Part shown: in pieces, positions 35,378-41,101 of the stretch
Layout of the letters: every line of letters starts with the position of its first letter
Numbering within the stretch: position 1 is the first letter of the stretch
Sequence record: MG983840.1
Reading direction: 5' to 3' (one strand)
DNA length: 64,000 nt
Source of the DNA: Escherichia phage myPSH1131
The notes under the pieces: generated by a model
Seen by the model: only the letters and a program-made list of their open reading frames with translations
What the model was told of the DNA's origin: nothing
Database searches by the model: none
Made by a program: the position numbers and the translations under genes

Positions 35378-36751
35378 TTAGTTATTTGTTTCCATGTCAA
35401 AAGAGATTCCACGACCCGCTTCATCGGCAAACCGAACTGTACGGGTTTGAGGTTCTAATACTTCAGGGTTGTTAGCAATAAAGCGATCAGCGAGACTGCG
35501 GCTGACAGCCTCAGCGAGTTCCTCATGAGAAGGAGTATCAAGATCGGAGAGACTGCCTACCACATCTTGGGCCACACCTTCATCAGTCCACACAGCCCTA
35601 ACAGGTGCGTTGATATCACCAACAGCAAAACCCTGACCAGAGAACTGACGTGCGCTAACAGTTAAGCCATTTGGTCGACCACGAGAGGGTCTAGCCATCC
35701 ATCGCTCCATAGAATCACTTGTAACACCAAGAGCTTCTTCAAAAGATGTTCTACGAGTAGTAGGTCTTATTCTTCGTGACTCTTGTGCTCGACGCATTGC
35801 AGGGGCTACAAACACCCCTTCAATTGCATTGTGTCGGTTAGGTTCTTCTTCCCGACCAAGTAGGTCGCCACCCGTGTTGGTTGTTAAGTTTGTCAACCCT
35901 TCAGACCAATACGCACTAATCTGACTAGATCCATGAACACTTGACATTAACTGGATTTCTTCATAAGGGATTCCAAATAATCGACTCATGTCACGATTAA
36001 CACAATACTGAGCACTTGTTGTATCCTCAATAAGAGCAACCTGACCTCGTTCGTTGACCAGATGATTAATCGGTTGAGGTGTGGGAAGATATCGAGTTTG
36101 GGCCATGTATTGATGTGCAGCTGCTGGAGAGGAAAATCTCAACACTTGCGAGTTAGGCCACTTCTTGTGAACATACCTGATTTCACGATTAGAAACAACC
36201 ACTGGACAAGGAGCGGTCATAGCCAAATATCCGTGAGAGGTCATGAATAAGTTGTCAAGAGTCATCGCACCACGGCACATCATAGGAAAATTATCCAATA
36301 CCTCTTCAATAGAAGTAGGATAATTAAACATGAATTGGATACGAACCCCATCCCACTGAAACTCAATAATATCAGTGAATGTTAATTGAGAACTCCCAGC
36401 ATAGGATTCGTTTGTAGCTTCAGCAAGAAGGGATGCATATTCAATATCTTGTGACTCTAACCATTCCTTCACATTACTTTCAATCTCTCTTCCAAGAGCT
36501 TGCCAACGATCAGTTGGGACGAAAGTATTTTGAGTTCTTGGTGTTTGTCCTCTGACAATAAAGATATCAATGTCATGTGGAGCTGTGTTATTAAGCACAG
36601 CATCACGAACAGCCCCACCAGTAATGATGGGACAGATACCGTCTGGAACTAAATTGTTGTTAATCAACTGTTCAATGAAGTGACGACCAACAGTGATATC
36701 AGGTTGTTGAGCAACCTTATCTTCAATTTGGTTAATCGGGATAACAATCAT
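35378..36751 (-). CDS. nucleotidyltransferase, poly(A)-polymerase/CCA-adding head domain family
   Basis: GGAVRDAVLNNTAPHDIDIF matches the GGxVRD...DxD head motif; start taken at MIVIPIN (ATG 36751), one base after the upstream stop; C-terminal half unassigned. Confidence 0.55.
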   Translation of the reverse strand: MIVIPINQIEDKVAQQPDITVGRHFIEQLINNNLVPDGICPIITGGAVRDAVLNNTAPHDIDIFIVRGQTPRTQNTFVPTDRWQALGREIESNVKEWLESQDIEYASLLAEATNESYAGSSQLTFTDIIEFQWDGVRIQFMFNYPTSIEEVLDNFPMMCRGAMTLDNLFMTSHGYLAMTAPCPVVVSNREIRYVHKKWPNSQVLRFSSPAAAHQYMAQTRYLPTPQPINHLVNERGQVALIEDTTSAQYCVNRDMSRLFGIPYEEIQLMSSVHGSSQISAYWSEGLTNLTTNTGGDLLGREEEPNRHNAIEGVFVAPAMRRAQESRRIRPTTRRTSFEEALGVTSDSMERWMARPSRGRPNGLTVSARQFSGQGFAVGDINAPVRAVWTDEGVAQDVVGSLSDLDTPSHEELAEAVSRSLADRFIANNPEVLEPQTRTVRFADEAGRGISFDMETNN

Positions 36752-36752
36752 T

Positions 36753-37247
36753 TTACATTTTCCAATATAATGAAGGTGGGTCGTAAGGGTCAAATCCCGT
36801 GAGTTCACACAAGAAAAGATAAACCTTAACAGTTAAGTTAACGTCCTGTTCACAATAAGTAAACATATCTTCAGTGAAAGCATCCCATGCTTCCTCTTGC
36901 TCACCATAATCGCCCTTAAGTTCTCCTAAGAACTCACCCCACTGCTTCAAACCATGACCCCTTGGGCCACGTCTAGGGTCGCCTTTCGGATACTCAGGAC
37001 TGTCACCAATACGGTCAGGTTTAAGATATCGACTAAGACATAAAGTGTCGAAGACGTTAAAACGATAGTTAATCAGATTGGGATACATCTTCTTCAGAGC
37101 ACAAAGGTCGAAGTCAATAATATTGTGACCCACCAGTACATCTGCTTCTGTAAGTTTACGAATCCCATCTTCAATTTGGTGAGGCCGATAGCCCCACCTT
37201 TCACCAGTTTCAACATCGAAGATATAAATACACCATACTAAAGTGCA
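36753..37247 (-). CDS. DnaQ-like 3'-5' exonuclease domain (DNA polymerase proofreading domain) as a separate ORF
   Basis: Exo I FDVETG, Exo [10 protein letters not shown], Exo III YCEQD; frame is open to 37247 but the only ATG/GTG/TTG start is GTG at 37133, downstream of Exo I. Confidence 0.55.
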
Positions 37248-37287
37248 TTACTCTCGATATCGAATGCAAACACTTTCTTCTTTTTCT

Positions 37288-37641
37288 TTACCACGGTGAA
37301 GCTCCATCTGCTTGGTTGACGAGAGAAGCTGCATCCTCTCCGTTAGTTAAAACGAATGGATTATCTTCATCAACTTCAAAGTCTTCCCTTTCTACAAGTC
37401 TCCCGGTTTCACTGATATACTTAGTATAGCAGACACCTGTCTGACCGTAGTTACGTTCTTTCAGTAATCGAATGACTGAGAGGTTCTTAGCTAAGCCATC
37501 AGCTTGCTTGTCACGCTCAAAGCCAATGATACACTGACACCAACGCATAAGAGAACGAGAGCCAGTGAACTGCACTTCACGTACCTGTCCACCTTCTTCA
37601 TGAGGAGCACCACCTGCCGGAGCATTAAGGTGAGATAGCAC
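37288..37641 (-). pseudogene. helicase C-terminal segment of T7-gp4-like primase-helicase, out of frame with upstream part
   Basis: IRLLKERNYGQTGVCYTKYISETGRL resembles gp4-type helicase C-terminal motif; acidic tail; separated from 37720..38628 by a frame break. Confidence 0.45.
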
Positions 37642-37719
37642 AAAAGCGGTAAAGTAAAGTCTAATTCTTTACACATACCAGCAAGCACCAGAGCGGTAAT
37701 GTTATCAAGGATGATGAAA

Positions 37720-38913: not shown

Positions 38914-39150
38914 GCTCTTCCTCCTTGGAATCCTTGAGCTTAGTAGAACGAACGAATTTCATCCCACACTTGTTCCTGTTCTTTCCTATAAAAAGAAAGT
39001 TGGGTCTTGAACATCTCCACTGATGATTCAAAGTTTTTGGTTTGTGCAGCTTCAACGAAACGTTCATGTCGGTTGATTTTGCACCGTAGCATTAAATACT
39101 TGGCTTCAAGTCTCCGAAGAGCTTACTCAATCTTTCATGTTTCATAAAAC

Positions 39151-39525
39151 CTACCAGTCTTGTTCTTCGTCGATATGATAAATCCAAGCGATAACAGTTT
39201 CACCTGAGTCCATCTTAACAGCAATCTGAGTACGCTGATAGAAGCTGTCTTCAGGGCTACGTTTGTTGTAACCTTCCAGACGGTCATACGGACCTTCCAG
39301 ACCTGCTTTGTCAGTAGCAAACACTTCTACACGAACAGGCTTGTTGTTATTGCTGTGTGCGAGAGAGATGCTCGGGAAGTAGGAACCACCGTAACGGAAC
39401 AGATCAAAGTTGTCTTCAGTCCAACCTTCACCAATTGACTTAGCACCAGCTCGGTCATTAACTAAATAGTTAGCTTGACCACGACGAAGAGAACCATAAG
39501 TTGCTACGTAAATTACTTCTGACAT
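39151..39525 (-). CDS. gamma-glutamyl cyclotransferase-like (GGCT/AIG2 family) protein
   Basis: N-terminal YGSLRRGQANY matches the YGTLKRGQPN signature; fragments of this gene recur at 41282..41470 and 38520..38676. Confidence 0.5.
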   Translation of the reverse strand: MSEVIYVATYGSLRRGQANYLVNDRAGAKSIGEGWTEDNFDLFRYGGSYFPSISLAHSNNNKPVRVEVFATDKAGLEGPYDRLEGYNKRSPEDSFYQRTQIAVKMDSGETVIAWIYHIDEEQDW

Positions 39526-39553
39526 TATCTATACCTTTGTTGGTTTGTTTAGT

Positions 39554-39778
39554 TTATCCGACGTTAGCATTTAAGCGAAGTTCCTGAATCTTAGTGTCAA
39601 TTGAGGGCCATAAGGAAGAACACGCACCATTGTTAGATACCTTTAAGTTTAAGAATTTCGTTAGAACGCGATCTCCAATACGAACATCAATGCTGGAGGA
39701 ATTAACAGCTGAGTGTGGTGCATCAATAACACCATCATCAATTAATTTATGTAACTCTGGACTTCCTAGTAAACTCAT
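39554..39778 (-). pseudogene. N-terminal fragment of dCTP-deaminase-like gene
   Basis: Matches first ~35 aa of 34629..35162 then diverges. Confidence 0.45.
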
Positions 39779-39787
39779 TCTTATTCC

Positions 39788-41101
39788 TTAGTTATTTGTT
39801 TCCATGTCAAAAGAGATTCCACGACCCGCTTCATCGGCAAACCGAACTGTACGGGTTTGAGGTTCTAATACTTCAGGGTTGTTAGCAATAAAGCGATCAG
39901 CGAGACTATCTCCCAAATCTTGTTCCATACCTTCATCAGTCCAGATAACACGAGAAGGGGCGTTGATATCACCAACAGCGAAACCCTGACCAGAGAACTG
40001 ACGTGCGCTAACAGTTAAGCCGTTTGGTCGACCACGAGAGGGTCTAGCCATCCATCGCTCCATAGAATCACTTGTAATACCAAGAGCTTCTTCAAAAGAT
40101 GTTCTACGAGTAGGGCTTTCTCTTCGTGACTCTTGTGCTCGACGCATTGCAGGGGCTACAAACACCCCTTCAATTGCATTGTGTCGGTTAGGTTCCTCTT
40201 CTCGACCAAGCAGATCACCACCCGTGTTAGTCGTTAAATTTGTCAACCCCTCAGACCAATACGCATGAATCTGACCAGAACCGTGAAGACTAGACATAAT
40301 CTGAATCTCTTCATAAGGGATTCCAAAGAATCGACTCATGTCTCGGTTAACACAATATAGAGCACTTGTTGTATCTTCAATAAGAGAAACCTGACCTAAT
40401 CCATTGACTAGATGACTAACTGGCTGAGGTGTGGGAAGATATCGAGTTTGGGCCATGTATTGATGCGCAACTGCTGGAGAGGAAAATCTCAACACTTGTG
40501 AGTTAGGCCACTTCTTGTGAACATACCTGATTTCACGACTAGAGACAACCACTGGACAAGGGGAAGTCATAGCCAAATATCCGTGAGAAGTCATGAATAA
40601 GTTGTCAAGAGTCATCGCACCACGGCACATCATAGGAAAATTATCCAATACCTCTTCAATAGAAGTAGGATAATTAAACATGAATTGGATACGAACCCCA
40701 TTCCACTGAAACTCAATAATATCAGTGAATGTTAATTGAGAACCCCCAGCATAGGATTCGTTTGTAGCTTCAGCAAGAAGTGATGCATATTCAATATCTT
40801 GTGACTCTAGCCATTCCTTCACATTACTTTCAATCTCCCGTCCAAGCTCTTGCCAACGATCAGTTGGGATGAAAGTGTTTTGAGTTCTTGGTGTTTGTCC
40901 TCTGACAATAAAGATATCAATGTCATGTGGAGCTATGTTATTAAGGACAGCATCACGAACAGCCCCACCAGTAATGATGGGACAGATACCATCTGGAATC
41001 AAGTTGTTGTTAATCAACTGTTCAATGAAGTGACGACCAACAGTGATATCAGGTTGTTGAGCAACCTTATCTTCAATTTGGTTAATCGGGATAACAATCA
41101 T
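39788..41101 (-). CDS. nucleotidyltransferase, second diverged copy
   Basis: Collinear with 35378..36751, same GGAVRD...DIDIF motif, scattered substitutions and a ~20-aa internal deletion. Confidence 0.55.
   Translation of the reverse strand: MIVIPINQIEDKVAQQPDITVGRHFIEQLINNNLIPDGICPIITGGAVRDAVLNNIAPHDIDIFIVRGQTPRTQNTFIPTDRWQELGREIESNVKEWLESQDIEYASLLAEATNESYAGGSQLTFTDIIEFQWNGVRIQFMFNYPTSIEEVLDNFPMMCRGAMTLDNLFMTSHGYLAMTSPCPVVVSSREIRYVHKKWPNSQVLRFSSPAVAHQYMAQTRYLPTPQPVSHLVNGLGQVSLIEDTTSALYCVNRDMSRFFGIPYEEIQIMSSLHGSGQIHAYWSEGLTNLTTNTGGDLLGREEEPNRHNAIEGVFVAPAMRRAQESRRESPTRRTSFEEALGITSDSMERWMARPSRGRPNGLTVSARQFSGQGFAVGDINAPSRVIWTDEGMEQDLGDSLADRFIANNPEVLEPQTRTVRFADEAGRGISFDMETNN

Follow-up and report, generated by a model that had tools for sequence, protein, structure and literature searches.

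Two nucleotidyltransferase alleles in a patchwork Kuravirus sequence: an artefact-like doubling of a known single-copy phage gene

Does a phage genome carry two diverged copies of a nucleotidyltransferase (NTase) resembling CCA-adding enzymes and poly(A) polymerases, and would such a protein serve in RNA repair? The question is raised by a 64,000-nt stretch of DNA from Escherichia phage myPSH1131 (sequence record MG983840.1), to which we will refer, at its full length, as “the window”. Two open reading frames (ORFs) for such a protein lie between 35378 and 41101, and a reading made from the sequence alone had taken them for diverged paralogues with a plausible role in repairing or tailing RNA 3' ends. 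Our analysis leads to a different view: the window is, with high confidence, a scrambled patchwork on the backbone of phage ES17, in which two alleles of one known single-copy gene stand together through an artefactual doubling, and the NTase that they encode is unlikely to be a CCA-adding enzyme.

Two alleles of one known gene

The two ORFs are the following:

35378..36751, minus strand: NTase copy A, intact ORF of 457 amino acids (aa), long (SU10-type) allele
39788..41101, minus strand: NTase copy B, intact ORF of 437 aa, equal to ES17 gp073

Both are in direct orientation and 4.4 kb apart, and both carry the head motif GGAVRD…DIDIF that had been noticed in them (more fully, ITGGAVRDAVLNN[T/I]APHDIDIFIV). 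Their ATG starts, at 36751 and 41101, agree with the RefSeq models of SU10 gp074 (456 aa) and ES17 gp073 (437 aa), respectively; longer forms are also possible, from GTG 36808 in copy A and TTG 41158 in copy B. The two proteins share 408/457 residues (89% identity; BLASTP, E = 0), far more than chance would give, with gaps of 1 aa and 19 aa opposite residues 331 and 397-415 of copy A.

Over 1370 nt, copy B does not differ from ES17 (100.0% identity), and its product is 100% identical to gp073; the exact protein occurs in ES17 and in two independent Logan contigs, always as a single copy and in an intact context. Copy A finds its best natural matches among long-form alleles, namely PH444 (95.9%) and SU10 (94.3%, without gaps; 93% aa identity to gp074), and exact-sequence look-ups of its 457-aa and 476-aa forms returned no protein on record. 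The 19 residues absent from copy B, VVGSLSDLDTPSHEELAEA, are the same in copy A as in SU10, and sequenced Kuraviruses commonly have either length form. The deletion of about 20 residues that had been described in copy B is thus present, as a 19+1-aa gap, and the comparison with relatives shows it to be a standing allelic indel polymorphism. The record closest to copy A, that of PH444 (PP350014.1; L006), is itself an unannotated “UNVERIFIED_ORG” entry of 114.9 kb, about 1.5x a Kuravirus genome.

The divergence between the copies has a natural character. Compared with 43 natural cluster representatives, copy A has a single private residue; the differences between A and B at codon positions 1/2/3 number 23/14/48, with a dN/dS of 0.23, and the value for copy A against SU10 (0.18) is comparable. 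Random noise as the origin of the copy-A divergence is ruled out by the single private residue, the third-position excess and this dN/dS. Since copy B has the nucleotide sequence of ES17 and copy A the indel state of SU10, the two differ as strains do. As far as sequence comparison can tell, and it does so clearly, both ORFs are natural alleles of one conserved single-copy gene, B being the ES17 short form and A a SU10/PH444-like long form.

The gene itself is already known: it has a RefSeq annotation, its product was seen in SU10 proteomics, and the BASEL-2 paper (PMC11990801) treats it. By its matches it is the Gordonclarkvirinae nucleotidyltransferase of SU10 (gp074, YP_009152925) and ES17 (gp073, YP_010673365), or phrog_12715 in the PHROGs collection (“nucleotidyltransferase”; E 3.9e-266 for copy A, over residues 1-457 of the 457-position profile, and E 2e-245 for copy B, each matched over its full length), and both copies are 77-95% identical to 44 Kuravirus clusters. 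Its catalytic half occurs in 84 phage records at 84 places, one copy in each. A second place in EK5 was discarded as a true second copy, as it comes from a permuted linear record. In the three contexts examined (Kuravirus, L007 and L008), the NTase always lies between the pol-exonuclease subunit and the dCTP deaminase; relatives at 33-41% identity keep the primase/helicase (596-598 aa), the pol-exonuclease subunit (177-182 aa), one NTase and the dCTP deaminase in this order. The locus is described as fully syntenic except for homing-endonuclease insertions (PMC11990801). The window departs from this single-copy state with two copies, A beside a truncated pol-exonuclease gene and an extra scrap, and B flanked by scraps, a departure which concerns the arrangement of the window and not the protein.

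A patchwork window and the origin of the doubling

Matches over the whole window show it to be Kuravirus DNA (Gordonclarkvirinae; phiEco32/SU10-like) on the backbone of ES17. About 100 Kuravirus genomes (E. coli podophages, Gordonclarkvirinae) match the region at 95-96% identity, and the ES17 backbone can be followed at 99.8-100% identity through 1-11037, 14222-20568, 31907-33796, 39661-41222, 44427-46038, 54967-56327 and 60527-64000, and at 98.5% through 24381-29414. Between these backbone blocks lie others that go back over neighbouring ES17 coordinates, at only 88-95% identity, and forward jumps along ES17 correspond to sequence deleted from the window. The same block pattern appears against SU10, and with respect to both genomes all blocks keep one orientation and progress overall along the genome. 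Comparison of the window with itself gave 28 direct-repeat high-scoring segment pairs at 71-100% identity and 0 inverted repeats; at least 15 direct duplications, mostly partial extra copies, are 88-98% identical. Of two natural relatives taken for control, PH444 follows ES17 in strict collinearity over the 34 kb compared, and SU10 offers a single full-length match for almost every ES17 gene.

About 12 block boundaries hold spacers of near-constant length (98-110 nt). Those that could be traced are lossy chains of 15-45-nt exact Kuravirus fragments, with 10-50 nt skipped between them, taken from a source kilobases away; where the source locus is still in the window, it lies 0.7-8 kb further on. 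To our knowledge, neither recombination nor standard assembly leaves such a signature. Two window-specific 50-mers across junctions or spacers had 0 matches in an exact search of IMG/VR and the JGI metagenomes, and INPHARED holds no second parent genome explaining the diverged blocks at about 100%, the best matches being 95.9-98.4%.

The surroundings of the two NTase ORFs exemplify this construction:

34629..35162, minus strand: dCTP deaminase, intact, SU10-type (99.4% aa identity to SU10, 59% to ES17; PF22769, E 3.5e-34)
35189..35290, no strand: misplaced 102-nt duplicate of 33902-34000, between the dCTP deaminase and copy A
35290..35497, no strand: 208 nt that recur at 100% identity at 39700-39907 and in ES17 (47731-47938), with the NTase 3' end and the first 26 codons of an ES17-type dCTP deaminase
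36756..37244, minus strand: pol-exonuclease subunit, residues 23-185 of 185, N-terminus missing (weak DNA_pol_A_exo1 match)
37291..38565, minus strand: primase/helicase residues 157-596, in two ORFs (37288-37641 and 37720-38628)
38749..38913, minus strand: displaced primase/helicase residues 1-55
39157..39525, minus strand: gamma-glutamyl cyclotransferase (GGCT), residues 1-123 of 139 (PF06094)
39540..39662, no strand: spacer of exact fragments from the ATP-grasp region (SU10 54740-82, 54811-31 and 54844-78)
39661..41222, no strand: island of 1.56 kb carrying copy B and scraps of both neighbour genes, 99.8% identical to ES17 47692-49253
41106..41222, minus strand: pol-exonuclease scrap, residues 147-185, upstream of copy B
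41223..41322, no strand: 100-nt spacer of four exact 15-27-nt amidotransferase-gene fragments (SU10 55861-87, 55930-50, 55959-79 and 55986-56000), without a match in IMG/VR
41324-41470: second GGCT scrap, residues 1-49

Copy A is roughly at its natural place, in the order dCTP deaminase, copy A, truncated pol-exonuclease and broken primase/helicase, with the misplaced duplicate and the 26-codon scrap of an ES17-type dCTP deaminase between the first two (35189-35377). The copy-B island, reached by a back-jump of about 4.4 kb in ES17 coordinates relative to the preceding block, holds only residues 1-41 of the dCTP deaminase and 147-185 of the pol-exonuclease subunit, and is bounded on both sides by stitched spacers (39540-39662 and 41223-41322). 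The NTases had been described as lying beside replication genes; the pol-exonuclease subunit and the primase/helicase do adjoin them, but as fragments only.

Damage of this kind is not restricted to the locus. When gene integrity was judged across the whole 64-kb window against the genes of ES17, no intact copy was found of any of the following:

primase/helicase: residues 157-596 in two ORFs and displaced 1-55; residues 56-156 nowhere in the window
pol-exonuclease subunit: residues 23-185, and the 147-185 scrap
ThyX: residues 47-206
PhoH: residues 1-166
GGCT: residues 1-123 of 139, and scraps
ATP-grasp: three partial copies
amidoligase and COOH-NH2 ligase: partial each
gp088 and gp119: partial

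Furthermore, gp065 and gp087 are absent from the window. With no intact primase/helicase, pol-exonuclease subunit or ThyX, the window cannot represent a viable phage, and such a set of genes would not allow a phage to replicate. Since duplications and broken genes are numerous throughout, the doubling of the NTase is one case of an artefact-like pattern that extends over the whole window. The doubling would have been created by whatever process produced the patchwork, and not by gene duplication followed by divergence. As to that process, the patchwork may derive from a co-assembly in which several Kuravirus strains that occurred together were merged into a chimera, or from a sequence constructed or generated in silico, and the single orientation of the blocks and their natural-type variation fit both origins.

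A third origin would be a real but defective molecule, faithfully sequenced: a recombinant of co-infecting Kuravirus strains, by illegitimate or homologous exchange, or an aberrant concatemer. It would agree with the one orientation of all blocks, with their overall advance along the genome and with the natural-type variation of the diverged blocks, which includes an endonuclease VII ORF that neither ES17 nor SU10 has. On the other hand, it would have to account for about 12 junctions with spacers of about 100 nt made of short exact fragments from loci kilobases away, for which no recombination mechanism is known, and for more than 25 independent events in 64 kb, implausible for one molecule; the lethal gene truncations and the near-constant length of the lossy spacers likewise disfavour it, and we regard it as improbable. 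A real segmental duplication in a viable phage, with two diverging NTase paralogues, could appeal to two intact ORFs with purifying-selection-like divergence (dN/dS 0.23), in direct orientation and 4.4 kb apart, but in-situ divergence within one replicating genome is contradicted by the identity of B to the ES17 nucleotide sequence and the SU10 indel state of A, by the occurrence of two copies in 0/84 natural genomes, by an island that stops inside its flanking genes and abuts stitched spacers, and by the non-viability that follows from the broken essential genes, so that the paralogy proposed by the sequence-only reading is largely refuted and very improbable indeed.

The artefactual doubling of natural alleles being the preferred reading, the two-copy arrangement is not credible as biology. 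More broadly, the 64-kb window is an untrustworthy genome, whose “paralogues”, “truncated genes” and “tandem copies” are to be discounted pending its provenance; besides the NTase, this covers the ejection proteins, the exonuclease and dNMP kinase, the ATP-grasp protein, the amidoligase and others. The direct-only duplications include the following, together with a C-terminal fragment of the DNA polymerase and the amidoligase/gp085 segment:

4021-6709 and 11142-14221: ejection proteins gp022-024, doubled
15285-17032, 21081-22708 and 22806-24280: exonuclease and dNMP kinase, three copies
24381-26116 and 29567-31806: further duplicated pair
49317-50597 and 50697-51977: further duplicated pair
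41691-46038: gp078-gp079-ATP-grasp (RimK-like) unit, three tandem partial copies, 92%, 91% and 100% identical to ES17, with ATP-grasp residues 122-400, 156-400 and 26-400, none full-length

The spacers stand at these places:

24281-24380, 31807-31906, 41223-41322, 44328-44426, 46543-46640, 50598-50696, 52352-52451, 56399-56498 and 60428-60526
starting at 11038, 20569 and 43005: further spacers, of 104-110 nt

Three other observations belong to the window at large. The endonuclease VII ORF mentioned above (129 aa; 12113-12502, plus strand; PF02945, E 6e-26) lies between the duplicated gp022 and gp023 copies, in a part that the best natural matches (88% query coverage) leave out; we take it for a probable homing endonuclease, derived from a Kuravirus not yet sampled. 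Positions 48229-48304 and 48305-48380 form a perfect 76-nt tandem duplication (100%) within or upstream of the glutamine amidotransferase gene, which would frameshift a long N-terminus of the SU10 type, as 76 is not a multiple of 3. Finally, the 243 nt at 46039-46281, in place of the ATP-grasp 5' end and gp081, barely match any reference and, rich in repeated GTCGTG/TTCGTG motifs, look non-natural.

Family, fold and motifs of the nucleotidyltransferase

The protein, natural in both its forms, can be considered independently of the window. An exhaustive phmmer search of 1.84 billion representatives with its N-terminal 230 aa returned a family of only 32 clusters. Conservation extends over residues 1-210 (26-42% identity); the proteins measure 274-482 aa, and many of them only 274-300 aa. 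Both copies and 30/30 family members have motif A, GGAVRD-x9-DIDIF, and the 30-member alignment contains thirteen invariant positions (G45, G46, R49, D50, D60, D62, F64, Y117, I128, Q139, P156, Y193 and K197) and one, position 127, that is always D or E and would provide the third catalytic carboxylate.

The two copies match Pfam PolyA_pol (PF01743) at 22.2 and 18.8 bits, below its cut-off of 23, over profile positions 3-86 of 126; across 30 members, 9 match it at E<0.01 and 0 exceed the gathering cut-off. Neither NCBIfam nor a single-sequence search of the PDB gave a match, and a profile of the 30 members met solved CCA-adding enzymes only in the 26 residues of motif A (E 0.006). A further accession, PF26128.2, figures in precomputed annotations of many Kuravirus orthologues (P0001-P0042) and is absent from Pfam-A scans of the same proteins.

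At the level of structure, the AlphaFold2 model is confident for residues 1-290, and its predicted local distance difference test score (pLDDT) drops below 50 at 291-344 and 351-405, so the description of the C-terminal half as low in complexity was a fair one; a C-terminal helix and hairpin follow with modest confidence. The predicted architecture consists of a Pol-beta-type catalytic domain of about 210 aa, about 80 ordered residues, about 115 disordered ones and a small, conserved C-terminal element (…TVRFADEAGRGISFDMETNN). The allelic indel falls at the boundary between disorder and helix. The top 30 Foldseek matches in the PDB are class-II CCA-, CC- or A-adding enzymes (E 2.5e-5 and weaker), the nearest solved folds being E. 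coli poly(A) polymerase I (PAP I) and CCA-adding enzymes, and none of the neck, body and tail RNA-binding domains is found in the NTase. In class-II NTases, motif B (RRD) serves ribose recognition and motif D (EDxxR) nucleotide templating; a regular-expression search of 30 members found neither of them in the conserved domain of any member, with only incidental matches in the C-terminal variable regions of 3 members.

Taken together, alignment and model describe a class-II-like head domain that lacks several hallmarks of CCA-adding enzymes and poly(A) polymerases. A CCA/poly(A)-polymerase-type head had been recognized correctly, on the strength of motif A and the nearest folds. Because profile searches did not assign the protein to an unrelated nucleotidyltransferase family, that family-level guess survives, even with PolyA_pol below its cut-off, but the functional story built on it does not.

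Function, and comparison with known systems

As to its activity, the NTase would carry out a two-metal nucleotidyl transfer in which a (d)NTP is the donor and the acceptor a hydroxyl group, most likely the 3'-OH of a nucleic acid. Its fixed place between the pol-exonuclease subunit and the dCTP deaminase suggests a role within the replication and nucleotide-metabolism programme of the phage. Among the early products of SU10, proteomics detected gp74 by a single peptide (PMC4281155), which indicates that the gene is expressed. On rough and subjective estimates, a role linked to DNA or replication, the published DNA-modification idea included, is a tentative candidate; RNA tailing in the manner of a poly(A) polymerase is about as likely; and nucleotide signalling is unlikely.

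The DNA-modification idea holds that the dCTP deaminase and the NTase together produce a covalent modification or unusual bases, and that these underlie the restriction-modification resistance of Gordonclarkvirinae; it was derived from the conserved locus of dCTP deaminase, NTase and replication genes and from measured resistance (PMC11990801). The persistence of the synteny at 33-41% identity speaks in its favour. However, the dCTP deaminase, ThyX and dNMP kinase already make up an ordinary route of dTTP supply, reports describe no modification, and we know of no class-II-like NTase acting as a DNA-modifying enzyme; the proposal is a tentative one. In the same tentative sense, the family might be a functionally new, head-only class-II offshoot acting on DNA or the replisome (e.g., in nucleotide or DNA modification) and not on tRNA. 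Such a reading concerns the family in general, was already flagged in the paper just cited and gains nothing from the window. The substrate of the NTase is a legitimate question for Kuraviruses, phages found in abundance, employed in therapy and strongly resistant to restriction-modification.

A CCA-adding enzyme repairing tRNA 3' ends against tRNA-targeting host defences, as the sequence-only reading had suggested, is clearly less probable. Motif A is of the class-II type and the nearest folds include CCA-adding enzymes, but the similarity in sequence to solved CCA enzymes is confined to 26 residues, and the missing nucleotide-templating motifs and tRNA-binding domains argue against canonical CCA addition, as do a PolyA_pol score below its cut-off, members of only 274-300 aa, 0 tRNA genes in the window and a location within a module for DNA replication and dNTP supply. 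A literature search for Kuraviruses and CCA addition found nothing. The putative partners in an RNA-repair role do not sustain it either: the “P-loop kinase” is a 299-aa protein annotated as dNMP kinase, without a Pfam match, the phosphoesterase a 167-aa Metallophos protein (24.8 bits), and the “DNA ligase” an isolated Nlig-Ia domain of 109 aa, all three encoded at a distance of 15-19 kb from the NTase gene. The annotations of SU10 and ES17 contain neither an RNA ligase nor a polynucleotide kinase (Pnkp), some of the window ORFs having been profile-scanned.

In comparison with known systems, RNA repair of the T4 or Pnkp/Hen1 type shares with the window a kinase-like protein, a metallophosphoesterase and an NTase in one genome; the window differs in having no RNA ligase or polynucleotide kinase, and in that its three genes are 15-19 kb apart instead of co-localised. 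Class-II enzymes (bacterial PAP I and CCA-, CC- or A-adding enzymes; PDB 3aql, 1miv, 4wby, 3h37 and 1ou5) are 13-16% identical to the NTase, which differs from them by the absence of RRD, EDxxR and the neck, body and tail, and by a disordered, lineage-specific C-terminal half. Stand-alone heads resembling those of CCA enzymes (e.g., PDB 2la3, from S. pneumoniae NP_344798.1; H6UK10, from Aeromonas phage phiAS7) are 14-15% identical and also uncharacterised. The closest system is the gp074 family of Kuraviruses, with the same protein and the same neighbours (pol-exonuclease subunit and dCTP deaminase), from which the window differs only in its two-copy arrangement and truncated neighbours, both apparently artefactual.

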